Shown in pieces: positions 31,420-63,326 of a DNA stretch of 64,000 nucleotides (its first letter is position 1; every line of letters starts with the position of its first letter). Under the pieces are notes generated by a model. That model ran no database searches, was not told where the DNA came from, and saw only the letters and a list, made by a program, of their open reading frames with translations. A program made the position numbers and the translations under genes. Origin of the DNA: Patescibacteria group bacterium (GTDB taxonomy: Bacteria > Patescibacteriota > Patescibacteriia > 2-01-FULL-39-33). Where the stretch lies: the NCBI GenBank assembly GCA_041649655.1, contig JBAZMO010000001.1, positions 173 through 64,172 of the forward strand, given 5' to 3'.

Positions 31420-31437
31420 TGTCAATCATAATTGACA
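31420..31437. promoter_or_regulatory. inverted repeat TGTCAAT-cata-ATTGACA
   Basis: Perfect 7-4-7 palindrome in an AT-rich intergenic region. Confidence 0.3.
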
Positions 31438-31454
31438 ATTTGTTATTTTCCGAC

Positions 31455-31476
31455 CATGATTCATGATTCATGATTC
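31455..31476 (+). repeat. (CATGATT)3 heptamer tandem repeat
   Basis: CATGATTCATGATTCATGATTC; related TGAATCATGA motifs recur at 38874..38903. Confidence 0.7.
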
Positions 31477-31524
31477 TAAATTCATAATTCTAGCCCGCCT
31501 GTGGATAACTTTTGTTTATGCCTC

Positions 31525-42500: not shown

Positions 42501-42710
42501 GTTACCTCGACTAATCCGTCTTCTTATGGCTATTTGCTTTGCAAAGATATTGACGGAGCGGTTTTGTGCGCCAGTGACAAAAAATGCAAGGCCCATGTTG
42601 CTACTTCCACAAATTCTGTTTTGAATGGCAGTTGGATTATTACCAAGGATAAATCCATCACTGATTTTACTACCGGAGAAACCGGCTGCTGCTTTGGCAA
42701 GTGTTTTTAA
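39504..42710 (+). CDS. giant secreted/surface protein 1 (1068 aa) with conserved N-terminal helical-hairpin membrane module
   Basis: Signal peptide then two TM helices around the invariant MYGGFIWMTAAGEPDKVTKAK. Gly-rich linker. Long Ser/Thr/Asn/Gly-rich beta-type extracellular region. C-terminal Cys cluster CCFGKCF. Confidence 0.7.
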   Translation: MIKRQIVSNQRSFFKNARAATIGSLAFFIALFLMPALAWAAGDIPTLSGVVEGTGLPMVNLTVFLLAILRIFFGLLGVLAIALLMYGGFIWMTAAGEPDKVTKAKQIIYNTIIGLIVIFSAFAITSFLMAWLNGLGGGGDGGGTTRIPGGNGDWGRSAIGAGPIQSVYPAPNAVNVPINTRIAVTFKVNIDPSSICELVAGETYCNGGLMKNVTICAISSTSSDCLPDPEFNANVYADTKVYQATSSDQRTFIFSTNNYLGLDDNQVRIFKVHLGADIEAAATNESVFANLRYPDYAWAFKTNGVLDFSPPEVARMEIYPNPDNTPDTYNVGAQSTVGSASITASITPRLETPPTIQGRPFTGTPLVDISLTEDLDNDPIIPDDYLKLGTSGFSVTSTNSVKKISFQISPAGEYIEFDISPDAASILGVTFSRTGVCANKERCLLVDDNKRVTLTGSGLTIASTGNFSEARGSKWSFTVSPAVNGDEVILANGTNKINFIFADTSLPAKITKRSVASDGRTIVNTDYFTVKSAATSTAGYLKGLNDALIAHAGNFVTSTVATNKIIVTPKAAGANSLSLTTNSSALAIDGNLSGEARVTARTPLPPGSKGDAYNNSVFRVSFTEAISPINIEQHVIIKINGDIVTASTTLTNQYRTLEFLGTKPCGVNSCGKQMYCWLDPNSADVSLPASIEIVAAGLKTCVGTNDDWCVKFGGTCQVGVDGGRCQLTNGLHYPQADVSADGVTDMANNSFNGNFNKSENNKGVMVGNAEGRSGTGAGRSGQPAYNANSITTPIHFDGLVTSFANDGDANGDNFSWSFFVSTQIDRAAPLIAKILPTGDSSHGIGLDQTFRDPVTLVFNGLMRLATLQPGWGYGEREADPRWHTRYLILKTITAGANPIGYWVSALNLDEGDFSTEAGRGDGLADYTEARINHSAYDQAVNYGPLAGNGIESITQNCLLPGNGPIDAGATGDNKCVYNSDGSGNTSGCVTDLDIDSNRRVTSTNPSSYGYLLCKDIDGAVLCASDKKCKAHVATSTNSVLNGSWIITKDKSITDFTTGETGCCFGKCF

Positions 42711-42744
42711 GTTATACAATACAAAAAGAAATTTTAATTCTTCA

Positions 42745-45700
42745 ATGTTAGTTCGAACAAAAAAAACACTTTTAGTCATTCTTGTAATTCTGGCGGCAGC
42801 GACTTTAGCGTTGCCGGCGGCGGTTTTGGCTGCGGGCGAAGTCCCGTCGATCGGCTTATTCGGCAGTATTTTCGGCACAGCGACTTTGGCGCAGATCATT
42901 ATTCGGATCATTCAGCTGTTTATGGCGCTTCTCGGCGTCATTGTTGTGGTATTTTTGATGTATGGCGGCTTTATTTGGATGACGGCCTCAGGCGATCCGG
43001 ACAAAGTCACCAAGGCCAAGCGTATCATCTTGCAGGCGATTATCGGCTTGGTTATAATTTTTTCGGCTTTTGCCATCTCCGCTTTCATTTTTGATCGTTT
43101 CGGCCCGCCGGACGGCGGTTCTCCGACTGAGCCCTGCGAAACTGTCGGAGAAACCGACAATTGTTCGGTCGGCGGCTGCACCGGTTTGCGGACTTGTCTG
43201 GAAGGCAATATCTGGGGTCCATGCCAATTCGATCCTAATTGCGATCCGATCAATCCTCCTTATAACCTAATTCCGCCGGTCATCACTTATATTGACCCGG
43301 CTTGGGACGTTAATGGCGATACTGATCCGAGCAATATCACGGAGGCCTCTACGGCTGATGACATTTCCAATGGTGCTCCGGGCAATGCCATCAGTATTTT
43401 CGGCCGTTATTTCGGCCAAGTCAGGGGCAAGGTTTATTTTGTCAGAAATAGTGACAATATTAGAACCGAGGCCGACATTGCCGATTGTTTCGGCGCTTGG
43501 ACTAGCAATCAGATCATTGTCGTGGTGCCGGACGGTTTGGATCAAATGGATATCAGCTCGGAAACGGCCATCGTCAATGCCAGTCCGCTCAGGAATTACA
43601 ATGTAATTGTCGAGAAAAATTCGACCGGGGCGACGTCTTTGGTCTCCAATGACTGGGGGTTTCAAGTCAATAAAATCGAACGGCCGGGGATTTGTTCTAT
43701 GGTTCCCAAGAGTGGCGCCTATCCGGCGACGACGACGATTGTCGGTTGGAGATTTCCCAGCGCTTCGCCGCAGAATGTTTTGTGGTCGCTGTCGCCTTAT
43801 CATGCAACATCAAGCGCTAGTGCTTGGACCGTCAGTTCGACGATCGATACCGTGCCGCAGGATTTAAGCGGCCGCGCTCTGGTAAATATTTTTAATGGCG
43901 TTGTCAAGAGTAATTCATATTTGTTCATGGTTTCTCGAGGCCGATTGGATGATCCTTGCGGCTATGATAATCGTTCATGCGACGAGGATATTAATACTTG
44001 CGGCCAAGATGAGGGCGTAGTTTTGGCCTGCCAATTCTGTTCTGATGATCCGGCTAATGATGATCATTATCAAGCCGGCTGTGATTTGTCGAAGAATTGC
44101 ACTTGCCAAATCAACTCGAAAGACGCCTGCGTTTATAATTCTGATCAGTTGCAAAATGATAAGCAGGCCTGCTTTATTGGCGGTTGCGCCGGCTTTAAAT
44201 ATTGCACTGATAGAGGTGTTTGGAGTAGCACTTGTGTGCCATCAGCAGTCGATTGCGTGCCATATCTGGGCAATCGTTCCGGCATCGCCTCATTTTCTTG
44301 GGCTTTTAACGCTTTGAAACGGCCGATAGCCGGCATGAGCTGTAAGTCGGATATTTGGAGCGATGATACTTGCGATCTTAACGGCTGTTTTGACGCCAAT
44401 CTCGGCTGTGATACTTCTCAAACGACTGAAGAGTGGGTTGAGATTTATAATCCGACCGATAGTGCGATTGATATCAGTGATTTAAGAATCAGCTATATTG
44501 ATGATTATTTCGGCACTGAAGAAAAAACCTTTTTTTCTTTTTCTAATCCGACTGGCAAATTTATCGGCGGCAAGAGTTACATGGCCCTAAGGAACACCGG
44601 AGCCCGTTTGCCGAATATTTCTGGAAAAATAATTTTAAATAATAATTTCAGCCAAGTTGATATTGTTGAGTATGGCAATAATGATTTATCGGCGGCTTTT
44701 TCGCCCGCTTCTTTTGGTCGGAAAATAGACGGTTTGGATACCGGCAACGCGTCTGATTTTGTTTATTTTCCTAATTCGAGCGGCGATTTTCCTAACAATA
44801 CGGCCAGTTCGACGATCGGTGATCATTTGGTTATAAATGAGGTTTCTTTGGCTCATGATGCCTGTACTTGCGTGCCGAAGTCGCAATTATGCGCCCCTGG
44901 CGAAGTTGATGCCCAGACCTGCGATCCGGTCGGGCAGTGCCGGCAGGCGAGGACCTGTTCGGCCGACGGCCATTGGGGCGCTTGCGTTCAAAGCGATCCC
45001 AATTGCATTCCTTATCCGCTTGTGCCGGCCTCGACTATCGCTTCTTACAGCTGGTCGTTCGGCGCGAATGCCGGGCTCTCTGGCGCCGGTCCGATGGTGG
45101 TTAAGTCGTGCGACGGTTCGGTCGATTGCAGCCGAAACAGTTTGCCCAGCCCTTCGCCCTGGGAAGAGTGGACGCCGGAAAATTCCAATGTGGAAAATCA
45201 AGCCAGTATCGATGCCTGTTTGAATGCCACGATTTTTGCGCGTTTTACACAAACGATGGATCAAGCGACTTTGAATACGGAGAATATTAAATTGTATAAA
45301 TATAATAATAGTAACGCAACTTGGGAAGATAATCGCTTAATTGATGATATTGAATCATTACCATTAAGTGACAGTGGTGTAGATTCTTTCAATTTAAAGC
45401 TTAATCAGAATTTAATTTCAAGTACCACTTATCGTGTTTATTTAAGCAAGTCGATTCGTGATGGATTGGGGCGCAATTTGATTGATACTCCTAATGGTCC
45501 GCGGCAGGAATTATGCGGCGGTGTCGGCGATGGCAATGGCGTCTGCTGGAGTTTTAAAACTCGCGCAGCCAGCGATCCTAATAAGATGTGCGAAGTCGGC
45601 TGCGTCAATTGCGGTCCGGACAAGTACTTCAATCGTTATTACGGCCAAAAGAAACAGCACGCCGCTTATCCGATCAGCATTGATAATTCTTGCATTGTGC

Positions 45701-48700
45701 TGGATGCTACGAATTATGAATGGGACTGGACGGTCGAGCAGCAAACCACTGGTAACAGTAATAATCGCGGTTGGGAAATCATGCGGACTATGGCGAGCGC
45801 CTATTCATGGCTGTTGGATCCAATCAGCCAGTTGGCTCTGACGGCAACTGATGGCATTTTACATCAGATAAGCGGCACAGTCATATCTGGCAAAGCGACG
45901 ACGACGGCGCAGTTGGAAACACGCTGGCGCACTAATTCCAATTATTCCGCTTGGTTCGAAGGCGATGATTTTGATTTTTTTGCAGTTAGGTCTAAGGAGG
46001 CCGCGACTCAAAATTCGGGAATCTGCCGGGCGCATAACAATTTTACCGATCCAGTGGTGATTGAAAGCCAATACTGCACCAAGAGTGATACTGAGGGTGA
46101 TGCTGACAGCGATAATTGGTCCAAGCAGGTCTTGCAAAGCCCGAGTCCCTGGAAGGGGCAAACTGATGCCTGCACTAATGGCGTTATCTTCGTGCTGTTT
46201 TCCCGTAATATGATGAATGGAAGTTTATTGAACGGCGGCCTAATTAAAAATTTTGAAATTTATAAGTGCGACAATGCCGCAGCCGCTACTTCTTCTGATT
46301 TCAGCAGTTATAATGATGATTGCGAACTTCAGCCGGCTTGGCAGGCTAAAGTTTTCAATTATACTCATCAAAATATCACCTTGCAGGAGTTAATGGCCGC
46401 TGCTGACAGCGTCCAAGGATCTACAACTCCGGAGGGAATCCGGATTTATCCTCCGAATAAATTAGCGTCCAACACTTGGTATAAAGTCCTTATTAGGGGC
46501 GGCGAGAACGGGGTGCGCGGAGGAAATTCTGATTCCAATGAGCAATCCGAGGGTGTTTTGCAAGTCCCCAATCCCAATGCCAGGATAATCAACGGTGCGG
46601 AAACTTGGTATTATTGGTATTTCAAGACAGGCGCCGGCGATTGCCCGATCGATCAGGTGGCGGTCTTGCCGCAAATCAAGTTTATGCCGGTAGTCGGAGA
46701 GTCCCAGGATTATTTAGCCGACCCGTATGCTGCCAATTGCAACCATCTTAATTCTAATAATTATGTTTGGCAGTGGGATTCTTTGATCAATCCCTTTGTC
46801 GACCGTTGTCCGAACGGCAATAATTCGGGCGATTATGTCGCTTCTATTCTTTCGACCACTTCAGACGAAACGATAGCGACTTCCAGAAGCGAGGGTAATA
46901 CTAAGATCACGGCCGCCGCCGAGCAGGGCGAGTGCGAAGCTAATAAATGGGGCGCCGGCGAATTGCAGGTCGGTTATGGCGGATTCAAGGTGTCTTCTTA
47001 TGACAACACCAATTGCTTGAACACTGATATTAATATCAATTTTTCTCAAGAGGCCAAAAGCGATACTCTTAAGAATAATATTGAGCTTTACCGATGCGGT
47101 AATTCTGATTGCCGTTTTGATGATTTACAGAACTTGCAGATTACTATAAGAAATCCGCAAGGCCTTTATGAAGATCCTATCAAACCAGATCCTTTTTATT
47201 CCAATTCGGTTTATCTGGTGCCGAATATCAATCTGACTCCGGGCGCAACTTATCGAGTGGTGGTTAAGGGAGGTGATACCGGCGTTAAGTCATTTGCTAA
47301 CTCCTCATTATTGGATTTGAATTATAATTCTGAGGCCAAAGCCGGTGGTGAAGTTTGCGATCCGGGGCTTTATCCTTGGCGGTCGGGCGATCCGTTTGTC
47401 GGATTATGCAGTAATGCCTGCAAGCTCATCGGCAACTTATGCGGCACGCCACTGGCGGAATGCCAGCCGGCTGATTTATTGTGCGATGACAACTGCCACA
47501 AAGTCGGCAATAGCAATACTTCGGCCAGTTGCGGTAATAATAAGATCGATCCCGGCGAGCAATGCGACGACGGCAATACCAGAGATGGCGATAGTTGCAG
47601 CTCGTTATGCTTGCTCGAAGGCAGCAACACCAGATACGGCTCGCTATGTGGCAACGGCAAGATAGAAAAAGGCGAGCAATGCGACGACGGCAATATCGTA
47701 GATAATGATGGCTGCAGTTCCGAATGTTTGCTGGGGGTAGAGGGCGTCACTACTAACATTTTATTTAATACCAGTTTTGAAGAAGACGACATACGTACTG
47801 GTGCGTTGAAAAATTGGTCTACATATTCACAAAAGCATTCTAAAGTGGAAGTTACATCAGTTGAGTATCAATCAGGAGCTCGAAGCGTTTTAATATTGCA
47901 GGAATCTAATCAAGTATTTCCCGGTACTTGTACGGAGGCGATTTGTAATGACTTGAGTCCAGCCCTCCCAACTAATATCGGTTGCACTTGGTTGAGTGCT
48001 ACCAATCAGTGTAGTTTTAATCAGCAGGATAGTGCGCATCTTGGCAACTCCAATCCCATTTATAATTTTGGCAACACTCTATATGCACCAAATAACCATG
48101 CGGTGGTGTGGGGTGCTCTTTCTTATAATGTATCTTCGCCCGGCTTTGTGGTAGGTCAGAAGTATACTGTTAAATTTTGGTACAAGGGAATAGTTGATAA
48201 GAATAGCACTACTAGTTTGGTTTTTGGTTATAACCCTGGCAATCTTAGTCAATGCAACTCGACTAGCACATTAAATTTGAAAGATGACCCAAGTAATCCT
48301 GGCAATGAAATTTGTAAAACTGGTAAATTTTGTTCTGACGATCCTAGTCATTGCTGTTTTCAGGCGCCTTACCAAACTAAATGTTATAGCGGCATATCTA
48401 AAACAGCGATTAATCCCGGTACTTATGATGATTGGCAGCCACATACGACCGAATTTATTTACACTTCGGAATTAGCCAGCTTGCGAGATAGTGCCGGCAG
48501 ATTATTAAATGTGATAGCCCTAGTTATTCCTAATGCGCCAACAACTGATAGTGGTACCAGGCTTTATATTGATGATTTTTCGGTCGAGCAAGTCGGTTCT
48601 GTCTCTGACGCGCCGATTTGCGGCAATGGCAAGATTGAAGCCGGTGAGCAATGCGATGATGGCGCTGATAATGCGGTTGATAGTTCGTCTCTTAATCGTT

Positions 48701-51700
48701 GCACCTCCAATTGTCTTTTAAGCGGCGCGAATGCTACGAGCACAGGCGGCACTTGCGGTGACCGCAAATTACAGAATGGCCAATTTGACAGTTACTCTTG
48801 GACTTTCAATCTTGATGACAATGTCAGAGTTTGCCAAGCTGTCAGAGCCGATCTCAATCCTTGCCCTAATGGTGTTTGGTCGGTCAGCGCTGATGCCAGT
48901 GTCAGCAGTTTTGATATCTTGTTTTATCGTGGGTTTGAAGGCAATAATAAACCTGCGTCTAATTGCATTTCTGACGCAGAGATGCGGCAATACGGCTTTT
49001 GGCGGCGGATGTTTAATGAATTAGCCAAGATAGTTAAAAGTTTCTTCGGTTTCCATTCGGCTTTGGCGGCCGATTGGTGGTGTACGATGAATAATTCTAA
49101 TGACAGTAAATTTTCAGCTGAAGATTTGCAAAAAATGAGCTTGGGTAATTTCAAGCGTGATATTTTGCTGGACGGGGTGTCGACTGAGATCATCGGTTAT
49201 ACTGATGATAATGACGGTTATAAAGTTAATTTTATCCGTAAAAATAACTATCAGCCGAACACCCAGTATAAGGCGGTGGTGAATTATGTCCGCAATGGCG
49301 TCAGCAATATCCGGACTTCCGATGTGACGACTTACTCCTCAAGCTGCCGAATGGACAGCGTTAAATTCGATGTCTGGCCGCGCGGCGCGGCTAAGAATTC
49401 GGATGCGTTTTTCTGCGCTTCTGATCCGGTTGCCGGCAAGTTGGACGAGTGCGGCCGTTTCAGCGATGATCCTTATGACGACGATATGTCGGCGGCTTGG
49501 ACCATGAATCAACTGGATAACGGCTATAACTTGAACAGCAATGGCGATGCTCAAACCGCTATTAATAATCCCAATTACAAGCCGGGCAATAATCATCTTT
49601 ATCGCGTCTGGCCGCTTGATCAAGACGGGCATGTTTTGCGCGGCATTAATTTTGAGCAGAATGTGGCCAATGTCGGCGCTCTGGTCAATCAGTCGGCTTT
49701 AGGCAGCACTGGTTATGCCGGCGATTTCTGGCTGACTTCGGGGCCAACCCAGGGCCGATCTCTTTTTAACGTCAAGATCAGTGATTTGAATGATGCCGGC
49801 GCCGGCAGCGTCAGCGGCAGTTTGCCGATTTATACTTTTTTCTGCAAGAATCCCTGGCCGTCCCCCAATGATTTCCCGTTTGTTGATAGTAACGCAAATT
49901 GTCCAACTGGCACTTGTATTAATACTAATTTCGCCGCTTACTATTGCCGCGATGCCGGACTGGACAGCACGACGGCTGATGATTTGCCGTCGATCGGCAG
50001 GATAAATTCCGGGGTGGCGGTCATCGGCTCTGAAGCTTGCCCAACCACTGATCCGTGCGACAATAAGATTAAGGAGTTCTTATTCAGCGGTTCGGCTGCC
50101 GGCATAGCGACCTCCAGCAATACCATCGGCTTGAGGATTTACAACAATAATAATCATTATTCGCCGACTTTGTGGTATCAATCGCGATTCAATCCCGCTT
50201 CCCAAAGCAATTTGTCGAAATTAAGCGTCGACGGCTATAGCGCCAGCCGAGAAGGCCGGACGACTTATATTAATGCGGCTGATTTTAAAGATGGCCAGGA
50301 CAAGGTTTATTCCGACATATTTATTTTGTCTTATGACCAGAACGCCGGCGAAGCGGTTAAGAATATTTATGACCAACTCTTAGCCAACTGGTTTTTCAAT
50401 GCCGGCTCCTTGTCAGTCGGCGGCTTGGAATATTATGAAGCCCTTGGTTTTTGCAGTGAAGGCAGCCAGGCCGATCAAGATAACAGATGCTTCAGCGATG
50501 TCGATTGCTTGAAACGCGGCGCCGGTTATTGTAAGTCGGAAAAAGCCAAGATCACCCGCGATACTCAGCGCTTGGCTGATGTCCAGGATATTTACAAGGA
50601 GTTGGCTGGTTATTATGGCCGCTTACGCTGTTCTAATGATTTCAATCGTGTTTGCCGGTCCAATGCCGACTGTTACGGCGGCGGAGCTTGCGGTAATTTC
50701 TATCCTAATTTGCGCGCCGGCACTTACCTGACCGGCAAAACCTTCAGTGTTTGGCCGAGCTGGCAGGATAACCTGGGCAAGGACTTGGGAACCGCTTTGC
50801 CAGTTGATCCGATTAATAAATTGTGGGCTTGGTATGGTAAGTCAGTTGATTGCTCTAATCCTTATAATCCCGTCACTTGTTGGGACCAGACCGGCAAAAA
50901 AATGGAGTCGAATCTTGATTGGAATTCTGCCGTCTATGCTTATTACGGCACTAAAGCCGGCACTTCGACTAAGATTTATATCAAGGGTGAAAAGGACTCG
51001 ACCGGTTCGATTTGGCATGAAGATTGGGTTTCGTTGGCGACTTGGGGTTATAACCCTTTCAGTGGTTATGTAGTTGGTGGTTTTCATTCAATAGTCAGCG
51101 ACAGTTGCGGCAATAATGTTTGTGATAATTCTGCCGGTGAGACCTGCTCTAGTTGTCCTTTGGATTGTGCTTGCTTAATTGGCAAATCTTGCCAAAAAAT
51201 TTCTAGTGTTTGGCAATGCGCGACATCGACATTACCGATTGCTGCATCCGCGACCTGCGGCAATGGGATTATAAATCATAGTATTAATTATATGACTGGA
51301 GCGAATATCGGAGAAGAGTGTGATTTTATTAATGGCGTGCCGAATTGTCCTAGTCCAAATGAGCTATTTGGGAATCCTAATATTATAAAACTTGTAACAT
51401 CTACTGTTCAAGGCGCTCTTTGCTGCACTGACCAATGCAAATTATCTGATTGGTATAAATCAGTTAATTCAAATCCCAGATGTGGCGACGGCTTAAGGAC
51501 TGACCAGGAAGAATGTGATTGTGGAACGGTTGGTTATACGCCAGCAAAATATAATCCCTTTGTCTGTAATAATCTAAATTATAATCCGATAACTACATAT
51601 TTAGAACCGCCAGCTAGGCCGGTTGATAAGCCATATTGCGACACTAATTGTTTTCTTCACATTAATACTGATTACAGGTTTTGCGGTGATGGTTTAAAGA

Positions 51701-52491
51701 CAGACGAGGAAAAATGCGATCAAGGTGATCGAAATGGCGTATCCGGCGGTGATTGTAGTAATCTTTGCGAATTTACTTGTACTATTAATAACTATAATAG
51801 TGCGGCGTTGACTTTTGGGTCGGCAAAATCAATAACTCAAATCTGGGAAAATTCCGGCGGTTCAGTGACGTTGAATACGCCCATTTGCCGCTTATCAGAC
51901 AAGATAAAATTGACAGTTGAAGCAGCTGCTGTTTCTGCCGCTTCGCCGGTTTTATCAGCTTTTGCCACTGGCGCAGACGGCCAGGAATATAGTTGCAATC
52001 GAGCTAGCGCAGCTGATTATTTTCAGAATAATGGCAGTTTAAGCCCCGGTTATAATGTTAATGATTCGAATGATTGTTACGTCAAGGTGATTGATAATAA
52101 TAAAAAATGTGATGATATCAGCTGGTTTCAAAGTAATCAGGGGTGTTGTCTTTTTAATAGAGATGATAAGATGTGGCATAAACCTTTTTGGACGCCTTTT
52201 ACTGGCATTAATGCTACTGGTGATTTGTGCGATCAAAATAATACTCTATTATTGGCGTTTCCGGTCCCTATTTTAAATCCAGGCGCGGTTATTCCTAAAA
52301 TTACAATTAAAATCGACGATCAACCGACTAATATCATTGACCAGGAAATTAATGGCAGTCAAACTCTTGATGTTACTATCTCTGCCGGTTTCTGCGATGA
52401 CGTTAATCATAACATCAGTTTGTCTTACAGCGATGCTGCTTCCGTTAAGCTTTCCTCGGTCTCGCTTGGATACTGCCCTAAATTAGATTAA
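42745..52491 (+). CDS. giant secreted/surface protein 2 (about 3250 aa)
   Basis: The same N-terminal module (MYGGFIWMTASGDPDKVTKAK). EEWVEIYNPTDSAIDISDLRISY lamin-tail-domain motif. At least five CGNGKIE.GEQCDDGN..D.DGCS..CL repeats (Myxococcus-type Cys-rich repeat). Many paired-Cys modules. Start set at ATG 42745 (MLVRTKK...). Confidence 0.75.
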   Translation: MLVRTKKTLLVILVILAAATLALPAAVLAAGEVPSIGLFGSIFGTATLAQIIIRIIQLFMALLGVIVVVFLMYGGFIWMTASGDPDKVTKAKRIILQAIIGLVIIFSAFAISAFIFDRFGPPDGGSPTEPCETVGETDNCSVGGCTGLRTCLEGNIWGPCQFDPNCDPINPPYNLIPPVITYIDPAWDVNGDTDPSNITEASTADDISNGAPGNAISIFGRYFGQVRGKVYFVRNSDNIRTEADIADCFGAWTSNQIIVVVPDGLDQMDISSETAIVNASPLRNYNVIVEKNSTGATSLVSNDWGFQVNKIERPGICSMVPKSGAYPATTTIVGWRFPSASPQNVLWSLSPYHATSSASAWTVSSTIDTVPQDLSGRALVNIFNGVVKSNSYLFMVSRGRLDDPCGYDNRSCDEDINTCGQDEGVVLACQFCSDDPANDDHYQAGCDLSKNCTCQINSKDACVYNSDQLQNDKQACFIGGCAGFKYCTDRGVWSSTCVPSAVDCVPYLGNRSGIASFSWAFNALKRPIAGMSCKSDIWSDDTCDLNGCFDANLGCDTSQTTEEWVEIYNPTDSAIDISDLRISYIDDYFGTEEKTFFSFSNPTGKFIGGKSYMALRNTGARLPNISGKIILNNNFSQVDIVEYGNNDLSAAFSPASFGRKIDGLDTGNASDFVYFPNSSGDFPNNTASSTIGDHLVINEVSLAHDACTCVPKSQLCAPGEVDAQTCDPVGQCRQARTCSADGHWGACVQSDPNCIPYPLVPASTIASYSWSFGANAGLSGAGPMVVKSCDGSVDCSRNSLPSPSPWEEWTPENSNVENQASIDACLNATIFARFTQTMDQATLNTENIKLYKYNNSNATWEDNRLIDDIESLPLSDSGVDSFNLKLNQNLISSTTYRVYLSKSIRDGLGRNLIDTPNGPRQELCGGVGDGNGVCWSFKTRAASDPNKMCEVGCVNCGPDKYFNRYYGQKKQHAAYPISIDNSCIVLDATNYEWDWTVEQQTTGNSNNRGWEIMRTMASAYSWLLDPISQLALTATDGILHQISGTVISGKATTTAQLETRWRTNSNYSAWFEGDDFDFFAVRSKEAATQNSGICRAHNNFTDPVVIESQYCTKSDTEGDADSDNWSKQVLQSPSPWKGQTDACTNGVIFVLFSRNMMNGSLLNGGLIKNFEIYKCDNAAAATSSDFSSYNDDCELQPAWQAKVFNYTHQNITLQELMAAADSVQGSTTPEGIRIYPPNKLASNTWYKVLIRGGENGVRGGNSDSNEQSEGVLQVPNPNARIINGAETWYYWYFKTGAGDCPIDQVAVLPQIKFMPVVGESQDYLADPYAANCNHLNSNNYVWQWDSLINPFVDRCPNGNNSGDYVASILSTTSDETIATSRSEGNTKITAAAEQGECEANKWGAGELQVGYGGFKVSSYDNTNCLNTDININFSQEAKSDTLKNNIELYRCGNSDCRFDDLQNLQITIRNPQGLYEDPIKPDPFYSNSVYLVPNINLTPGATYRVVVKGGDTGVKSFANSSLLDLNYNSEAKAGGEVCDPGLYPWRSGDPFVGLCSNACKLIGNLCGTPLAECQPADLLCDDNCHKVGNSNTSASCGNNKIDPGEQCDDGNTRDGDSCSSLCLLEGSNTRYGSLCGNGKIEKGEQCDDGNIVDNDGCSSECLLGVEGVTTNILFNTSFEEDDIRTGALKNWSTYSQKHSKVEVTSVEYQSGARSVLILQESNQVFPGTCTEAICNDLSPALPTNIGCTWLSATNQCSFNQQDSAHLGNSNPIYNFGNTLYAPNNHAVVWGALSYNVSSPGFVVGQKYTVKFWYKGIVDKNSTTSLVFGYNPGNLSQCNSTSTLNLKDDPSNPGNEICKTGKFCSDDPSHCCFQAPYQTKCYSGISKTAINPGTYDDWQPHTTEFIYTSELASLRDSAGRLLNVIALVIPNAPTTDSGTRLYIDDFSVEQVGSVSDAPICGNGKIEAGEQCDDGADNAVDSSSLNRCTSNCLLSGANATSTGGTCGDRKLQNGQFDSYSWTFNLDDNVRVCQAVRADLNPCPNGVWSVSADASVSSFDILFYRGFEGNNKPASNCISDAEMRQYGFWRRMFNELAKIVKSFFGFHSALAADWWCTMNNSNDSKFSAEDLQKMSLGNFKRDILLDGVSTEIIGYTDDNDGYKVNFIRKNNYQPNTQYKAVVNYVRNGVSNIRTSDVTTYSSSCRMDSVKFDVWPRGAAKNSDAFFCASDPVAGKLDECGRFSDDPYDDDMSAAWTMNQLDNGYNLNSNGDAQTAINNPNYKPGNNHLYRVWPLDQDGHVLRGINFEQNVANVGALVNQSALGSTGYAGDFWLTSGPTQGRSLFNVKISDLNDAGAGSVSGSLPIYTFFCKNPWPSPNDFPFVDSNANCPTGTCINTNFAAYYCRDAGLDSTTADDLPSIGRINSGVAVIGSEACPTTDPCDNKIKEFLFSGSAAGIATSSNTIGLRIYNNNNHYSPTLWYQSRFNPASQSNLSKLSVDGYSASREGRTTYINAADFKDGQDKVYSDIFILSYDQNAGEAVKNIYDQLLANWFFNAGSLSVGGLEYYEALGFCSEGSQADQDNRCFSDVDCLKRGAGYCKSEKAKITRDTQRLADVQDIYKELAGYYGRLRCSNDFNRVCRSNADCYGGGACGNFYPNLRAGTYLTGKTFSVWPSWQDNLGKDLGTALPVDPINKLWAWYGKSVDCSNPYNPVTCWDQTGKKMESNLDWNSAVYAYYGTKAGTSTKIYIKGEKDSTGSIWHEDWVSLATWGYNPFSGYVVGGFHSIVSDSCGNNVCDNSAGETCSSCPLDCACLIGKSCQKISSVWQCATSTLPIAASATCGNGIINHSINYMTGANIGEECDFINGVPNCPSPNELFGNPNIIKLVTSTVQGALCCTDQCKLSDWYKSVNSNPRCGDGLRTDQEECDCGTVGYTPAKYNPFVCNNLNYNPITTYLEPPARPVDKPYCDTNCFLHINTDYRFCGDGLKTDEEKCDQGDRNGVSGGDCSNLCEFTCTINNYNSAALTFGSAKSITQIWENSGGSVTLNTPICRLSDKIKLTVEAAAVSAASPVLSAFATGADGQEYSCNRASAADYFQNNGSLSPGYNVNDSNDCYVKVIDNNKKCDDISWFQSNQGCCLFNRDDKMWHKPFWTPFTGINATGDLCDQNNTLLLAFPVPILNPGAVIPKITIKIDDQPTNIIDQEINGSQTLDVTISAGFCDDVNHNISLSYSDAASVKLSSVSLGYCPKLD

Positions 52492-57184: not shown

Positions 57185-58564
57185 ATGCCTGAAATAAAAC
57201 CGGATATCGAGACGATTGCCAAAATAAAAGTAGTAGGCGTGGGCGGCTCGGGCGGCTCGGCCGTTAATCGCATGATCGCGACAAAAATTCGCGGCGTGGA
57301 TTTTATTGCGGTCAATACCGACGTGCAGGCCCTGCACCATAATACAGCCAAAACCAAGTTCCATATCGGCCAGAAAATCACGCGCGGCCTGGGCGCCGGC
57401 ATGAATCCTTCAGTCGGTCTGGCCTCGGCTCAGGAGAATGCCGGCGAAATCCGCGATATCCTGAAGGGCTCGGACATGGTTTTTATCACTTGCGGTTTGG
57501 GCGGCGGCACCGGAACGGGAGCTTCGCCGGTCATTGCTCAGATTGCCAAAGAAGCCGGCGCGTTAGTGGTGGCTGTCGTCACTAAACCTTTCACTTTTGA
57601 GGGCAAACAGAGGATGAAGATTGCTGATGAGGGTTTGGAGATCCTTCGGCCCAATGTCGATGCCATCATCACCATCCCCAATGAGAAGATCTGGCAGATC
57701 GTCGATCAGAAGACCTCTTTTTTGGATGCCTTCAAGGAAGTCGATGATATCTTGCGCCAAGGCATTCAGGGTATCTCAGAAATTATCACGATTCCGGCGC
57801 TGATCAATGTTGATTTTGCCGATGTCAAGGCGATTATGAAGGACGCCGGTTCAGCTTTGATGTCGATCGGCGAAGGCGCCGGAGAAAATCGCGCCGTCCA
57901 GGCGGCCAAAGCGGCCGTAGCTTCGCCGTTGTTGGATTTATCAATCGATGGCGCCCAAGGCGTGCTGTTTGTCATCTCCGGCAGCTCTGATTTGGCGATG
58001 AGCGAAGTCAATGAAATCGCTTCGATCATTACGGCCGGCGCGGATGAGAATGCTAAGATTATTTTTGGCGCCAATATCGACGAAAGTTTGAAAGATCGCA
58101 TCCGGGTGACTTTGGTGGCGACCGGTTTTGGAGAACCGATGAAAAAGCCGTCTCGATCGGGAGAGCGCAGCACTTGGGGCGACAAGATCAATAATATTTT
58201 CGTGGATAAGAGTCCGGCCAACGATGACGAAGGCCCGAAATTCGGTTCTAAAGCGGTCGGCGGCGATAATGAGCCGGTTGTGATCAGATCAAGATCAGTT
58301 AATGAAGAAAACCGGAAATCGTTGTTTCATTTAGGCAGTCGCGGTTCGTCAGCTGTCGGCGACGAGGATTTCGATGTGCCGCCGATCATTAGGAAAGGCG
58401 GTTTATTCAAGCCGATCGAGGCGGTGTCGCGGAATGAATCGGCAACGGCTAATGATGATTTTGATTCTCGTTCTGTTCCTTCCAAGGCCCCGGTCCGGCT
58501 TTTGGACGAAGACGATGATGATGACTTGGAATTGCCCAGTTTTATCAGGAAGAAGATGAAATAA
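57185..58564 (+). CDS. ftsZ: cell division GTPase FtsZ
   Basis: GGGTGTG tubulin signature ([16 protein letters not shown]); long disordered acidic C-terminus. Confidence 0.95.
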
Positions 58565-58780
58565 TCGGTAAAAAATCGGCTTGGCCATGGTCAGTCCGCT
58601 TCTGGCGGATTGATTTTTTTTGAGTTATCTTCGGGTTGAAAACTTTATCCACAGCGCCGGTTTATTTTCTAAAAAAGCCAATGAAAAAGCGCCTTGCCAG
58701 TGTTGTCTTGGACGGGTATAATTAGATTCTAAGAGGGGGCGGCCATTAGGTCAGTAGCGGAAAAATCATTTCTTATAATT

Positions 58781-60829
58781 ATGGAGTCAAAAATAGCGCA
58801 AATCAAAAAACGCAACGGAGAAATCGCCGAATTCAGCCAAGCTAAAGTGACTTTGGCGATTTATAAGGCGCTGGCGGCCGTCGGGCGCGATGATGAGCCG
58901 TTGGCTCAAAGATTGTCTGATCAAGTCATCGGCGTTTTGAATGATAAATTCCATCCCCGGTCGATTCCGGCCATTGAAGAGATCCAGGACATTGTTGAGG
59001 AGGTCATGATCAAGGAGGACTTAGTCAAAGCGGCCAAGGCCTATATCATCTATCGCGAACAGCACGCCCGTTTGAGAGAATTGAAGCAATTATTGAATTC
59101 CAATGATATCATCGAGGGTTATCTGAAGAAAATGGATTGGCGGGTCAAAGAGAACGCCAATATGGCTTATTCCCTTCAAGGTTTGAATAATCATGTCGCT
59201 TCGGCGGTTTCGGCCAATTATTGGCTTAATAAGATTTATCCGCCGGAAATCAGGAACGCCCATAATGACGGCGTCATGCACATTCATGATCTCCAGATTT
59301 TGGCGGTTTATTGCTGCGGTTGGGATTTGCAGACCTTGATCCGAGTCGGTTTTTGCGGCGTCGAGGGCAAGGTGCAGAGCAAACCGCCTAAAAGATTCCG
59401 TGCCGCTTTGGGCCAAGTGGTTAATTTTTTCTATACTTTGCAGGGCGAGGCGGCCGGCGCTCAGGCCTTTGCCAGTTTCGACACTTTGATGGCGCCGTTT
59501 ATCCGCTATGAGGGTTTGGATTACAAGCAGGTCAAGCAAGGCATTCAGGAATTCGTTTTCAATATGAACGTGCCGACTCGGGTGGGCTTCCAAACGCCAT
59601 TTACCAATCTGACTTTTGATTTGATCTGTCCGTCGACGATGGCCAATGAGCCGGCGGTTATCGGCGGTGTGCCGCAGCCGGAGACCTACAAAGAATTCCA
59701 GCTGGAAATGAATCTGATCAATCGCGCTTTCGCCGAAGTCATGATGGAGGGCGATGCCAAGGGGCGGGTTTTCACTTTTCCGATTCCGACGTATAATATC
59801 AGCAAGGATTTTAATTGGGATAATGAGAACCTGGATCCGATTTGGGAGATGACTGCCAAATACGGCATTCCTTATTTCGCTAATTTCGTCAATTCCGACA
59901 TGAAGGCGGAAGATGCCCGTTCGATGTGCTGTCGGTTGCGGTTGGATAACCGCGAACTCAGGAAACGCGGCGGCGGCTTGTTTGCCGCCAATCCTTTGAC
60001 CGGTTCGATCGGCGTAGTCACGATCAATTTGCCGCGGATCGGCTATCAATTCAAGGGCAACGAATCGGCTTTTTTCTCCCGTTTGTCCCAAGTAATGGAT
60101 TTGGCGCGTCAGTCGCTTAAATTGAAGCGCGCAGTATTGGAGGACTTCACTGAAATGGGCTTATACCCTTACGCTCGATTTTATTTGTCGGAAATCAAGG
60201 AACGTTTCGGAGAATACTGGCGGAATCATTTCAATACGATCGGCATCAATGGCATGAACGAGGCCATCGTCAATTATTTGGGCAAGCCGTTATCGTCCAA
60301 AGAGGGCGGAGAATTTGCCGAGAAAATCATGGATTTCATGCTTTCTCGCTTGACTCAATATCAAGAGGAAGATGATGAGATGTATAATTTGGAAGCAACG
60401 CCGGCCGAGGGCGCCACTTATCGTTTCGCCAAAAAAGACAAAGAACTTTATCCCGATATTGCGGTCGCCAATGAACAGCAGTACCGCTTGAATAATGCCG
60501 CGCCCTATTACACTAATTCTTCGCATTTTCCCGTTAATTACTCCACTGATATTTTTGATGTTTTGGAAAAGCAAGACGGTTTGCAGATTAAGTATACTGG
60601 CGGCACGGTCGTCCATGTTTTTTTAGGCGAGAGGATGCCGGATATTGCCAGCACCAAGAATTTGGTCAGAAAAATCGCTGAGAATTTCCATTTGCCTTAT
60701 TATACCCTGACCCCGACTTTTTCGATCTGCCCCAAGCACGGCTATCTGCCGGGCGAACAGCGCTTCTGCCCGATTTGCGACGGTGAAATCGGCTATATCA
60801 GGGAGCAGAAGGAGAAGTTACCGTTATAG
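58781..60829 (+). CDS. nrdD: anaerobic ribonucleoside-triphosphate reductase (class III), body lacking the glycyl-radical segment
   Basis: N-terminal ATP-cone. NrdD core. C-terminal zinc ribbon CPKHG...CPICDG. Stop TAG at 60827 before the expected RVxGY glycyl-radical motif. Confidence 0.9.
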   Translation: MESKIAQIKKRNGEIAEFSQAKVTLAIYKALAAVGRDDEPLAQRLSDQVIGVLNDKFHPRSIPAIEEIQDIVEEVMIKEDLVKAAKAYIIYREQHARLRELKQLLNSNDIIEGYLKKMDWRVKENANMAYSLQGLNNHVASAVSANYWLNKIYPPEIRNAHNDGVMHIHDLQILAVYCCGWDLQTLIRVGFCGVEGKVQSKPPKRFRAALGQVVNFFYTLQGEAAGAQAFASFDTLMAPFIRYEGLDYKQVKQGIQEFVFNMNVPTRVGFQTPFTNLTFDLICPSTMANEPAVIGGVPQPETYKEFQLEMNLINRAFAEVMMEGDAKGRVFTFPIPTYNISKDFNWDNENLDPIWEMTAKYGIPYFANFVNSDMKAEDARSMCCRLRLDNRELRKRGGGLFAANPLTGSIGVVTINLPRIGYQFKGNESAFFSRLSQVMDLARQSLKLKRAVLEDFTEMGLYPYARFYLSEIKERFGEYWRNHFNTIGINGMNEAIVNYLGKPLSSKEGGEFAEKIMDFMLSRLTQYQEEDDEMYNLEATPAEGATYRFAKKDKELYPDIAVANEQQYRLNNAAPYYTNSSHFPVNYSTDIFDVLEKQDGLQIKYTGGTVVHVFLGERMPDIASTKNLVRKIAENFHLPYYTLTPTFSICPKHGYLPGEQRFCPICDGEIGYIREQKEKLPL

Positions 60830-60955
60830 TCAAGAGTAAAATAATTTTTAATTTTGTAATTTTTAAATAATGTCTAAATGTTTTAATGTTTAAAAATTAA
60901 GAAATTAAAAAATTATTTATAAAATTAAAAATTAAAAATTCTTAAAAAAAACCAT

Positions 60956-61125
60956 ATGGAAGGTGACAACAAAGAGAATCTCAGGCAGCCCTGCGAGGTT
61001 TATTCGCGCGTGGTCGGCTATATCCGGCCGGTCGATCAATGGAACCCCGGCAAGCAGTCGGAGTTCGGCGATCGAGCCAACTTCGAGTCCCATTGCGCCT
61101 GCCAAGGCGAAGCAGCGGCTTCATG
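60956..61125 (+). CDS. stand-alone NrdD glycyl-radical domain peptide (56 aa)
   Basis: MEGDNKENLRQPCEVYSRVVGYIRPVDQWNPGKQSEFGDRANFE matches the NrdD C-terminal glycyl-radical consensus (vySRVvGYyrPv..WN.GKq.E..dR). Separated from the nrdD body by 126 nt of AT-rich low-complexity DNA. Confidence 0.6.
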
Positions 61126-61151
61126 AGGATAAGAATGCACCGCTTAAAGAT

Positions 61152-61841
61152 ATGAGAATCGGAGGACTCCAGCCCGTAACCTTGTTGGATTATCCGCAAA
61201 AATTGGCAGCCATCATTTTCACCGCCGGGTGCAATATGCGCTGTCCTTTTTGCTATAATTACAAATTGGTCTTGCCGGAATTGCTCAGCGATGATAATCT
61301 TTATGATGAGCGGGAAGTCATCGCTTTTCTGAAGAAACGCAAGAAGTATCTTGACGGCTTAGTGATTAGCGGCGGCGAGCCGTTGGCGCAAGAAGATCTG
61401 CCGGATTTTCTCAAGCAGATGAAACAGATCGGCTATGCGATCAAGTTGGATACGAACGGCTTGGCGGCCGATATTTTGCAGCACTTGATCGGCGAACAGC
61501 TGATTGATTATATCGCTATGGACATCAAGGGACCGCTGGCTGATTATCAGAAGTTTTCCGGCGTGCCGGCCGGCCAAGTTGCCGATAGCATCAAGCTGGT
61601 CATGAAATCAGGCCTGCCTTATGAATTCCGTTCGACTTTGGTCAAAAATCTGCATACCTCGGAAGACGTTGGAAAAATGGCACAAGCCATTAAGGGGGCT
61701 AAGCTGTATTATTTGCAGAATTATTCCCAGAACGTTCCGTTGGCCGGCGATAAATTCTGCGGCCGGCAGTTTGCTGCTGAAGAATTGGAAACGATGCGAG
61801 CTTTAGCGGCCGGCAGCGTCAAAAAATGCTTAATCCGATAA
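61152..61841 (+). CDS. nrdG: anaerobic RNR activating protein (radical SAM)
   Basis: CNMRCPFCYN CxxxCxxC motif; start assigned to ATG 61152 (MRIGGLQP...). Confidence 0.85.
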   Translation: MRIGGLQPVTLLDYPQKLAAIIFTAGCNMRCPFCYNYKLVLPELLSDDNLYDEREVIAFLKKRKKYLDGLVISGGEPLAQEDLPDFLKQMKQIGYAIKLDTNGLAADILQHLIGEQLIDYIAMDIKGPLADYQKFSGVPAGQVADSIKLVMKSGLPYEFRSTLVKNLHTSEDVGKMAQAIKGAKLYYLQNYSQNVPLAGDKFCGRQFAAEELETMRALAAGSVKKCLIR

Positions 61842-61850
61842 GATAAAAAT

Positions 61851-62090
61851 ATGACTGATGCCAATATCGATGATGACATAAAAAAATTACTGGTGGAAAA
61901 TCTGGCCGATACCAAGATTTTGAAAGAAGAAATTTGCAGGATCAAATCCTATATGCGGTGGCGGACGATCGTTTCTCTTATTTGGATCGCCTTGATTGTC
62001 TTGCCGGCGATTTTAGCGCTTTTTTATGTGCCTGATTTCATTAAGGGCTTTGCCACTAGCGCGAGTTTGATTAAAAGTTTGGGGCTTTAG
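61851..62090 (+). CDS. small membrane protein
   Basis: 79 aa with one TM helix (VSLIWIALIVLPAILALFYV). Confidence 0.4.
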   Translation: MTDANIDDDIKKLLVENLADTKILKEEICRIKSYMRWRTIVSLIWIALIVLPAILALFYVPDFIKGFATSASLIKSLGL

Positions 62091-62170
62091 CGCTCGGCGT
62101 TATTTTGATTGGAGTGGAGGAGTTTTTTTCTTTATTTCTTAATTTCTTGTTTCTTTATTTCTATTAATTT

Positions 62171-63326
62171 ATGGATGAAATAATAACTCAAATCAAGGTC
62201 TTGGCCGATCGGATCAACGGCACGTGGAGGTTACTTTGACCTGGACCAAAAGAAACTAAAATTGAAGTCATTGGAAGGGGAAATGAACGCCCCTGATTTT
62301 TGGTCTGATCAGGATCGGGCGAAAGGACTGAGCCGTAAACAGCAGAATCTGCAGGCGGAAATTTCAACTTGGGAAAAATTGCGCCAGGAGACGGCGGAAT
62401 TGTTGGAATTGGCTCACATTTTTATCGAGGCGGAGGAGATCAGCCAGCATGAGCAAGAGATAAAGGATAAGTTGTTGGGGTTAGAGCAGCAATTCCAGAC
62501 GCTGGAGTTCGCCATCCTTTTTTCTTCCGATTATGACCAGGGCAATGCTATTTTATCCATCCATGCCGGCACGGGCGGCGTTGATGCGATGGATTGGGCC
62601 GGCTTATTGCTGCGGTCTTATTTGCGTTTTTGCGAACGGCACGGCTTTGAAGCGAAAATTGTGGATGAAACGGCCGGCGCCGAGGCCGGCATCAAGAGCG
62701 TCACCTTGGAGATAGCCGGCAATTACGCCTATGGCTGGCTCAAAAGCGAGAACGGCGTTCATCGCCTGGTCAGGATATCGCCCTATGACGCCGAAAAAAT
62801 GCGTCATACTTCTTTTGCCTTAGTTGAGGTTTTGCCGGAAATTGAGGAGACGGGTAAGATCGAATTGAAAGAGGACGACTTGAAAATTGATGTGTTTCGA
62901 GCCGGCGGCCATGGCGGCCAGTCAGTCAATACCACCGATTCGGCGGTGCGGATTACTCATCTGCCCAGCGGTATTGTGGTCAAGTGTCAGAATGAGCGTT
63001 CTCAATTGCAGAATAAGAATACGGCGCTGAAAGTCCTTAAGGCCAAATTGGTCAAATATTACGAAGAGCGAGCCGAGTCGGATTTGCAGAAGATAAAAGG
63101 CGAACATCGCCAAGCCGAATGGGGCAATCAGGCCAGATCTTATGTCTTGCAGCCCTATCGCTTGGTCAAGGATCATCGCACCGGCCAGGAGACCAACGAC
63201 ACTGATCGGGTTTTGAACGGAGAGTTCGATGATTTTGTCGAGGCCTATTTGAAGTGGCTGGCCGGCGGGTCGGTCGAAGCCGATAAGGCCGGAGTCGGCG
63301 TTAAAAAGAAAATAATTAAGAAATAA
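62171..63326 (+). CDS. prfB: peptide chain release factor 2 with programmed +1 frameshift (frame 0 is 62171..62236; the +1 frame runs from 62238)
   Basis: Frame 0 reads [22 protein letters not shown] then stops at UGA. Classic shift site GGAGG-tta-CTT-TGA-C at 62226..62240. The +1 frame continues LDLDQKKL... to the SPY tripeptide (SPYDAEKM) and GGQ motif ([19 protein letters not shown]). Confidence 0.9.
62226..62240 (+). promoter_or_regulatory. RF2 autoregulatory +1 frameshift site
   Basis: Internal SD-like GGAGG, 3-nt spacer, then CUU UGA C. Confidence 0.85.

Follow-up and report, generated by a model that had tools for sequence, protein, structure and literature searches.

Structure of the nrdD locus

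We analysed a window of 64,000 nucleotides (nt) from a Patescibacteria group bacterium (GenBank assembly GCA_041649655.1, contig JBAZMO010000001.1, positions 173 to 64,172 of the forward strand), in which the anaerobic, class III ribonucleotide reductase NrdD is encoded in two pieces. All genes of the locus lie on the forward strand. The first open reading frame (ORF), 58781..60829, encodes the NrdD body of 682 amino acids (aa), ends in ...CPKHGYLPGEQRFCPICDGEIGYIREQKEKLPL and is closed by the TAG codon 60827-60829. It is followed by an intergenic spacer of 126 nt (60830..60955, assigned to no strand) and by a small ORF, 60956..61126, which starts with ATG at 60956 and encodes the 56-aa candidate small subunit MEGDNKENLRQPCEVYSRVVGYIRPVDQWNPGKQSEFGDRANFESHCACQGEAAAS. 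The next gene, nrdG (61152..61841), begins 25 nt beyond the small ORF. It encodes the radical S-adenosylmethionine (SAM) activase, as indicated by matches to TIGR02495 NrdG2 (198.9 bits against a cut-off of 131.15) and to the Pfam domains Radical_SAM and Fer4_12. An earlier note, made from the sequence alone, had placed the nrdD stop right after the zinc ribbon, described the spacer as about 90% A+T and set the small ORF just upstream of nrdG. Sequence and ORF list bear this out, with a measured G+C content of 9.5% in the spacer. The length and the start of the small ORF were also correct, but its end was given as 61125, one base short of the TGA codon 61124-61126.

The body is a clear NrdD. 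It scores 605.5 bits with Pfam NRDD (cut-off 26.2), 1023 with NF006126 (cut-off 548) and 521.5 with TIGR02487 (cut-off 326). Pfam assigns an ATP-cone to aa 7-96 and NRDD to aa 124-667, and the chain comprises the ATP-cone, the ten-stranded barrel core, the zinc ribbon and a conserved tail of 13 residues. The closest body, with one genome considered per GTDB species, is that of Ca. Buchananbacteria (86% identical). Two features that define NrdD are present. The finger-loop motif M382-C383-C384-R385 (59924..59935) forms the thiyl-radical cysteine loop and belongs to the MCCR class (classes after PMC9669993). The zinc ribbon C650-x2-H653 ... C663-x2-C666 (60728..60778) lies at the C-terminus. In alignment A2 of 55 sequences, S381 and M382-R385 are invariant, as are C650 and C663, and H653 and C666 are nearly so. 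The third feature, the radical motif RVxGY, is absent from the barrel chain, which stops 13 residues after the zinc ribbon. Its C-terminus before TAG reads ...ICPKHGYLPGEQRFCPICDGEIGYIREQKEKLPL. The segment EIGYIRE of the tail has neither the Ser-Arg that precedes the glycine nor the following WNxGK helix of the radical motif.

The radical motif is found in the small ORF. The latter consists of a leader (MEGDNKENLR), a loop (QPCEVYSRVVG21YIRPV), a C-terminal helix (WNPGKQSEFGDR) and an acidic tail with Cys-x-Cys. The predicted radical site RVVG-Y was identified by direct reading of the sequence, the Gly21 codon GGC being at 61016..61018. Upon realignment with its homologues, this glycine (G703 in the numbering of the fused chains) proved invariant in alignment A3, as the earlier note had required. 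The small ORF reaches 37 bits with NRDD (cut-off 26.2) and stays far under the NCBIfam cut-offs for whole proteins. The match ranges in the Pfam NRDD profile (PF13597) adjoin without overlap, the body covering positions 1-528 of 562 (E 1.4e-181) and the small ORF 532-562 (E 2.2e-9). Thus the two ORFs divide one family model. The NF006126 profile of 684 positions is divided similarly, into 3-652 and 648-682. The 64-kb window holds one body and one Gly loop and no more.

At the C-terminus of small proteins of this type, Cys-x-Cys or Cys-Cys precedes acidic residues; in the window this region (residues 45-56, 61088-61123) reads HCACQGEAAAS. Intact NrdD from related Gastranaerophilales end in CCC, and the finger loop here (59924-59935) is of the double-cysteine MCCR class. 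By analogy with the C-terminal cysteines of class I and II enzymes, the cysteine tail might shuttle reducing equivalents.

Site of the break

In intact close relatives (sequences of Parcubacteria type and from Chloroflexota and Syntrophomonadaceae), CPxC is followed by three residues and then by QPCEVYSRVVGY, so that the radical glycine lies 14 residues past the last zinc ligand. Both flanks are present in the window, as CPIC-DGE on the body and QPCEVYSRVVGY on the small ORF. Separating them are the 13 tail residues I670-L682, IGYIREQKEKLPL (60788..60829 with the TAG codon, alignment A1), the stop codon, the spacer, a start codon and the ten leader residues MEGDNKENLR. The earlier note expected alignment to intact NrdD to show an interruption of the linker alone. 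The flanks are indeed kept, but 23 additional residues lie on either side of the break. The tail IGYIREQKEKLPL is peculiar to the split forms and has no counterpart in intact relatives in alignment A1.

In solved NrdD structures the glycyl radical domain consists of the zinc site, the buried Gly loop and the C-terminal tail (PMC11226230). Residues 408-666 of the body align best with residues 310-564 of T4 NrdD, and the aligned stretch ends at C666, opposite 564. Since C666 is the end of the aligned body and the domain is laid out as in the solved enzymes, the break falls within the glycyl radical domain. The zinc ribbon stays on the body, and the Gly loop with the C-terminal segment is detached.

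Split genes in related genomes

The same architecture was sought, as the earlier note had proposed, in 80 GTDB species, those whose NrdD bodies are closest to that of the window (one genome per species; loci are denoted by L-numbers). It is present in 38 of these, and the remaining 42 have intact genes. In every split species a loop-less body is followed immediately by the small ORF. The order body, small ORF, nrdG is kept in the relatives. The genomic contexts of three stand-alone proteins likewise show body, spacer, small ORF and nrdG, with spacers of 18, 19, 59 and 90 nt. Split loci occur in independent assemblies from JGI, ENA, Logan and NCBI.

The split loci fall into three types, whose tails and leaders are unrelated. 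Type A (17 loci) comprises the Buchananbacteria-like group of the window and other Patescibacteria, with CPR2, Shapirobacteria and others. The body tail is of the form CDxE-x-G-Y/F... and the small protein mostly starts with MEGDNK... The tail IGYIREQKEKLPL is kept in loci of this type, where its motif E-I/V-G-Y/F is conserved and under selection. Type B (15 loci) is found in Moraniibacteriota (L027, L029, L031, L033-L035, L039, L040, L043, L045-L047, L057, L082, L085). Here the body tail ends in ...VKFEKVK, and the small protein of 87-113 aa carries its own CxxC...CxxC ribbon before SRVVGFHTP and matches positions 509-562 of the NRDD profile. Type B bodies also keep their zinc ribbon, which suggests that the whole C-terminal domain was duplicated and the loop of the body was then lost. 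Type C (6 loci) is found in Spirochaetota (Leptospirales), contigs of 3.7 and 4.9 Mb being among them; the tail is CPYDHSPEELLKYGIEVDI and the small protein starts with MEKKELKV.

Neighbour-joining analysis of the bodies groups type B and type C as separate clades, each with 100 of 100 bootstraps, and supports the core of type A with 94 of 100. A bipartition with 88 of 100 separates type C, together with at least ten intact sequences, from all A and B. Thus the same site was probably split more than once. The most economical scenario, which a distance tree cannot prove, would be that a single permissive site underwent fission repeatedly and that now and then a gene was joined again. A candidate for the latter event is locus L019 (1064-3241), an intact nrdD nested in clade A. 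Its junction CPKCDEDDMSPQKLERQKCEVY resembles the CDE of type A joined to an L018-like leader MTSQKLERQKCEIY, and an internal Met stands where the small ORF would start. Thus L019 may be a re-fused split gene.

Two bodies are unusually long. The Dojkabacteria-type body of L002 (1-3482) exceeds 1333 aa and gives faint LAGLIDADG and intein matches, and the Buchananbacteria-like body of L004 (402-3410) has 1002 aa, well over 682 aa. Both probably carry inteins besides the split. Ten of the records (L009-L012, L014, L015, L017, L018, L032, L054) are titled "uncultured Gammaproteobacteria bacterium", yet their NrdD loci match Patescibacteria; the titles of these GTDB representatives are probably placeholders or reflect wrong taxonomy.

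Recurrence bears on the first alternative, in which the arrangement would be an artefact, that is, an assembly or indel error or a fresh pseudogene. A spacer of extremely A+T-rich, low-complexity sequence assembles poorly, and the junction has no exact match in public metagenome contigs. However, the architecture recurs in 38 of the 80 related species, assemblies made independently show it too, and a simple error in the stop codon is ruled out because the intact relatives do not have the 23 additional residues. Moreover, the split-specific tail and leader are conserved at the protein level although their synonymous sites are saturated (see below). An artefact or recent lesion is therefore extremely improbable, and the reading of the locus as a recently disrupted gene, also raised in the earlier note, is contradicted both by the recurrence and by the purifying selection on the two pieces.

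Stand-alone small proteins in databases

The small ORF is too short for automated gene callers according to the earlier note. Hundreds of such ORFs have in fact been called in public data, and several are named as the reductase. A word-indexed search of a protein database with the small ORF returned 319 proteins, the best 120 of which are all stand-alone and 45-65 aa long; several from Parcubacteria, Patescibacteria and Dojkabacteria bear the name anaerobic ribonucleoside-triphosphate reductase. This type of search seems to favour targets of the length of the query, as all the proteins obtained with a 120-aa query were 88-209 aa long. Thus the claim that the matches are short rests on an exhaustive search, which gave 2922 cluster representatives at E <=1e-3. 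Among its best 150 matches, 149 are short (49-160 aa) and stand-alone.

No match at E <=1 was found in a sequence search of the PDB with the small ORF. When small proteins of all three types were scanned against Pfam and NCBIfam, NrdD models alone were matched and no Gly_radical domain of the pyruvate formate-lyase type; type B proteins additionally gave weak, sub-threshold matches of zinc-ribbon type. No curated family for the stand-alone protein was found in these scans.

The intergenic spacer

The spacer region has the lowest G+C content of any 100 nt in the window (0.06, the next being 0.13; the window mean is 47.1%). It is made of A/T repeats of 7-8 nt, which form a long imperfect palindrome. 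Its predicted RNA fold has an energy of -28.2 kcal/mol (z = -4.05). The spacers of L004, L008 and L013 fold well too, whereas those of L001, L010, L014, L015 and most others do not. As folding is confined to few relatives and the sequences are unrelated, a conserved hairpin was ruled out.

The spacers of the relatives have lengths of 11-411 nt, mostly under 150, and cannot be aligned. A value of -53 obtained for L017 is an artefact of the automatic choice of start. Palindromes or tandem repeats occur in some spacers and differ widely in sequence. The longest, 411 nt in L018 (4553-4966), consists of G+C-rich tandem repeats of about 20 nt, gcgttgtgagcagtgtggt..., whereas the spacers elsewhere are A+T-rich. 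No Rfam family was matched in a scan by E-value of positions 58000-62500. The coding strand of the window's spacer contains no ORF of 30 aa or more, and no terminator was found in it. A single promoter-like match of 9/12 was seen at 60897-60925, the counts of such matches being not clearly above shuffled expectation.

A direct repeat of 14 nt, TCGGCTATATCAGG at 60789-60802 and TCGGCTATATCCGG at 61014-61027, encodes GYIR both in the body tail and in the radical loop, in the same codon phase. It was considered as a target-site duplication or deletion junction and rejected, because relatives keep the peptide motif in different codons. As the mark of an insertion it was rejected as well; the geometry does not fit, since QPCEVYSRV is found only downstream. 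The reading of the spacer as a degenerate intron or insertion scar, one of three put forward in the earlier note, is contradicted by the recurrence of the split, the variation of the spacers, the selection on the coding pieces and the lack of Rfam matches.

Separate translation and selection

Among 43 distinct split loci, with a median spacer of 86 nt, the frame offset between the two ORFs is 0, 1 and 2 in 19, 10 and 14 cases, respectively. In lineages that use Shine-Dalgarno boxes, one stands before the small ORF at a suitable distance, as in Spirochaetota (cAGGAGAcataatATG), CPR2 (aAGGAGGgtattATG), Shapirobacteria and L022; another such site is aAGGAGGtggtgataattATG. In the window the small ORF has no obvious ribosome-binding site, as had been noted earlier. 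However, this is usual here: by crude gene calls, about 4 of the 39 genes in the window have a motif resembling a Shine-Dalgarno box. Since the genome rarely uses such sites, their absence is uninformative.

Comparison of the window with ten relatives of type A demonstrated that the 33-codon Gly-loop core has accumulated 10-27 synonymous differences over about 22 sites and is thus saturated. Its dN is 0.04-0.18, with omega of 0.056 and 0.091 where it could be estimated. In the 13-codon tail, pS is 0.65-1.6 (saturated) against a pN of 0.03-0.19. Conservation of the protein despite saturation at synonymous sites shows that the small ORF and the tail are translated and constrained. Both split-specific pieces are under strong purifying selection.

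These data bear on the second alternative, in which the two ORFs are rejoined by an intron, ribosomal bypass, readthrough, an intein or trans-splicing. The nrdD gene of T4 carries a group I intron. In the window the two ORFs share a frame, the 14-nt repeat would provide an in-frame junction, and the stop and start codons come close to each other in minimum free energy (MFE) folds. On the other hand, bypass implies a fixed frame with matched take-off and landing sites, and here all three offsets occur. Spacers of 11-23 nt are too short for any intron, and the spacers are unrelated to each other and have no Rfam match. Neither an intein nor an endonuclease domain was found in tail or leader (Pfam reports NRDD only), and intein blocks and a nucleophile are lacking. 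Finally, the Shine-Dalgarno boxes and the conserved ATG indicate an independent start. The frame offsets, the variation of the spacers, these boxes and the lack of Rfam and intein matches thus exclude intron, bypass, readthrough and intein, and point to independent initiation; rejoining in any form appears very unlikely.

The stem formed by the stop and start regions in several MFE folds was also considered as a device for translational coupling. This was rejected, as synonymous recodings pair equally well or better: the duplex sum is -94.0, compared to -98.7 +/- 8.3 for the recodings, 71% of which are at least as good. Thus there is no evidence of selection at the RNA level.

Orphan genes in viruses

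Two scans of IMG/VR for the small ORF identified 17 contigs. In all of them the Gly loop resides in a short ORF of 48-119 codons from stop to stop. A search with the body hidden Markov model and with NrdG around the 17 loci found neither within up to 10 kb on each side; for five loci this region was the whole contig. In L096/L113 (IMGVR_UViG_3300025764_000002) and L109 the orphan gene is flanked by the genes for the terminase large subunit and the portal; it lies among head-tail connector genes in L090/L107 and next to the terminase gene in L118. In L105 (9266-9946) a gene for an HNH endonuclease is situated immediately upstream of the orphan Gly-loop ORF; this neighbour may be a clue to movement of the cassette or to the splitting of host genes.

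In the archaeal virus ANMV-1 (KP703175.1, 25525-25959; L120/L121), a 144-aa gene, whose product AJP62049.1 is annotated as anaerobic ribonucleoside triphosphate reductase, encodes the zinc ribbon and the Gly loop only. The 38.5-kb record contains no NrdD body and no activase. The authors of the ANMV-1 study read this gene as a complete oxygen-sensitive reductase, nrdD (PMC4372165). These viral copies, which stand without body or activase, speak for action of the small protein in trans, and the phage genes may represent an auxiliary metabolic gene of a new kind.

Action in trans on a host enzyme would also fit a third alternative, in which the small protein is a spare part in the manner of GrcA for an intact NrdD encoded elsewhere, or a regulator that titrates NrdG or the body. 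The type B small proteins are complete domains that include a zinc ribbon, as would be expected of a duplicated spare, and what was analysed here is a window of 64 kb out of a whole genome. However, the adjacent body is loop-less in all 38 split species and so needs a partner in order to work. Body, small ORF and nrdG follow one another closely in a conserved order, as genes of subunits do, and none of the split assemblies is represented twice among the 80 best NrdD loci. The complete conservation of SRVVGY is what is expected of a catalytic part rather than of a decoy. A spare or regulator is an unlikely explanation.

Other features of the window

A promoter-like site TTGCCA-17-TATAAT (11/12 matches, 58694..58722, forward strand) was found upstream of nrdD by a consensus scan. 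It may be the start of a transcription unit comprising nrdD, the small ORF and nrdG, although the evidence is weak, as the number of promoter-like sites in the region does not exceed the shuffled expectation.

Downstream of the locus, the release factor 2 gene prfB (62172-63326) has a +1 frameshift site CTT TGA C at about 62234-62240, preceded by GGAGG, in a genome nearly without Shine-Dalgarno boxes. A second very A+T-rich stretch is located at 31281-31494, with a minimum of 13% G+C. A giant ORF of 3289 aa occupies 42625-52491.

Model structure and proposed mechanism

The body and the small protein were modelled as one fused chain with AlphaFold2. With an alignment of 87 rows the model has a predicted local distance difference test score (pLDDT) of 84.7 and a predicted template-modelling (TM) score of 0.80; without an alignment the pLDDT is 34.8 and the model is worthless. 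Residues 14-39 of the small protein (pLDDT 82-91) form a beta-hairpin of strands 696-701 and 704-707 with Gly21 (G703) at its tip, followed by a helix. The tail is modelled as a helix with pLDDT 58-82, and the conformation of the leader is ill-defined. Solved NrdD structures are matched by the model with probability 1.00 and TM scores up to 0.77. As a model, it shows that the two chains are compatible with the canonical NrdD architecture.

We consider it likely that the locus encodes a natural split class III reductase, composed of the body, a separately translated subunit with the radical loop, and NrdG, all in one operon. This two-polypeptide NrdD was the first of the three readings in the earlier note, and it has been upheld by the 38 split species out of 80, the three frame offsets, the Shine-Dalgarno boxes and the purifying selection. 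From homology with single-chain NrdD and from the precedent of YfiD, the following mechanism may be proposed. NrdG would abstract a hydrogen from the small protein at Gly21. The loop with this residue would then occupy the barrel of the body, as the covalent loop does in ordinary NrdD, and the glycyl radical placed there would generate a thiyl radical on the finger-loop cysteine (MCCR). In NrdD of P. copri, the glycyl radical domain moves as a rigid body and exits the barrel (PMC11226230). As this domain is a mobile unit already, a cut of the chain at it is plausible.

Several points weigh against the split reductase. The case for every member of the class is built on sequence and model, and we infer the formation of the complex, the installation of the radical on the small protein and the activity. 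The docking in the model is not independent, since a single fused chain was modelled and every row spanning the full length of the alignment is an intact enzyme. The proposal gives no account of how a 56-aa peptide is retained, or of the role of the tail EIGYIREQKEKLPL. A second, intact nrdD may be encoded elsewhere in the genome, beyond the 64-kb window. An exact 35-mer across the junction had no match in public metagenome contigs, and no independent assembly of the organism was found. Finally, one part of the proposal is speculation. Oxygen cleaves a glycyl-radical protein at the glycine, and the advantage of the split could be that after such cleavage only a 6-kDa subunit would have to be remade.

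A wider interpretation is held more tentatively. The small protein could be an exchangeable radical cofactor, the first autonomous one outside the formate-lyases, which arose by repeated fission at one site, is cheap to renew as a 6-kDa peptide after damage by oxygen, and in the copies of phages of bacteria and archaea charges the reductase body of the host during infection. We regard this combination as possible but somewhat doubtful.

Comparison with known systems

To our knowledge, the radical loop of glycyl radical enzymes has been regarded as belonging to one catalytic chain, the sole exception being the spare part YfiD/GrcA of pyruvate formate-lyase (PFL). Published statements, a 2026 review being among the sources, know of none outside the formate-lyases (PMC13450708, PMC8683613). 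No description of a split NrdD or of a spare part other than that of PFL was found in the full-text literature, subscription-only literature being outside this search. The locus is one member of a large and apparently undescribed variant of the class III reductase, although a prior mention is possible. For the reductase, it provides an answer at the level of sequence to the question of whether spare-type radical parts exist beyond formate-lyase. A natural body with a radical subunit of 45-110 aa and an activase makes installation, docking, oxygen damage and exchange of the radical part separable for study. There are consequences for annotation as well, as loop-less bodies look truncated and the small ORFs are named as whole reductases.

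Compared to canonical NrdD/NrdG (T4, Escherichia coli, Thermotoga maritima, P. copri, S. thermophilus), the ATP-cone, barrel, finger-loop cysteine, zinc ribbon, RVVGY motif and adjacent NrdG are shared. In the canonical enzymes, however, about 14 residues of one continuous chain lead from the last zinc ligand to the Gly loop, whereas here a break flanked by 23 extra conserved residues intervenes.

The class II reductase NrdJa/NrdJb (Pseudomonas aeruginosa, Thermus phage phiYS40) similarly has its catalytic chain in two consecutive ORFs. The C-terminal piece bears a zinc-finger-containing accessory region needed for turnover (PMC9669993, PMC3653736). This enzyme uses the B12 cofactor, and the part detached is the domain with reducing cysteines and zinc, not the radical site as here.

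Interrupted yet functional reductase genes are also known in phages, as in NrdA of Aeromonas phage Aeh1 and in nrdD genes with introns or inteins, nrdD being the reductase gene most often split in phages (PMC3653736). Those interruptions are a homing endonuclease gene, group I introns and inteins. Here no homing endonuclease gene lies between the pieces, and the spacer contains neither an ORF nor a known RNA family. In contrast to mobile elements of phages, the break has one fixed position and is stably inherited in cellular lineages.

The nearest parallel in mechanism is with GrcA/YfiD of E. coli and Y06I of T4. In these, as is proposed here, a small stand-alone protein bears the glycyl-radical loop, is presumably charged by the activase of the parent enzyme and is inserted in the barrel of a large subunit whose own loop is missing or no longer works (for YfiD, PMC13450708, PMC8683613). 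Both systems have a version encoded by phages, Y06I for PFL and the orphan genes and ANMV-1 for the reductase. The analogy with GrcA, drawn in the earlier note, holds for the mechanism but not for homology, as the small ORF is homologous to the C-terminus of NrdD and not to PFL's Gly_radical domain. The small protein of types A and C, with 45-65 aa, is also shorter than YfiD, which has 127 aa. Furthermore, YfiD stands in for the loop of an intact PFL once oxygen has cleaved it. The gene of the NrdD body, on the other hand, encodes no loop; the missing part is replaced rather than kept in reserve, and the small protein encoded in the operon would be an obligate subunit.

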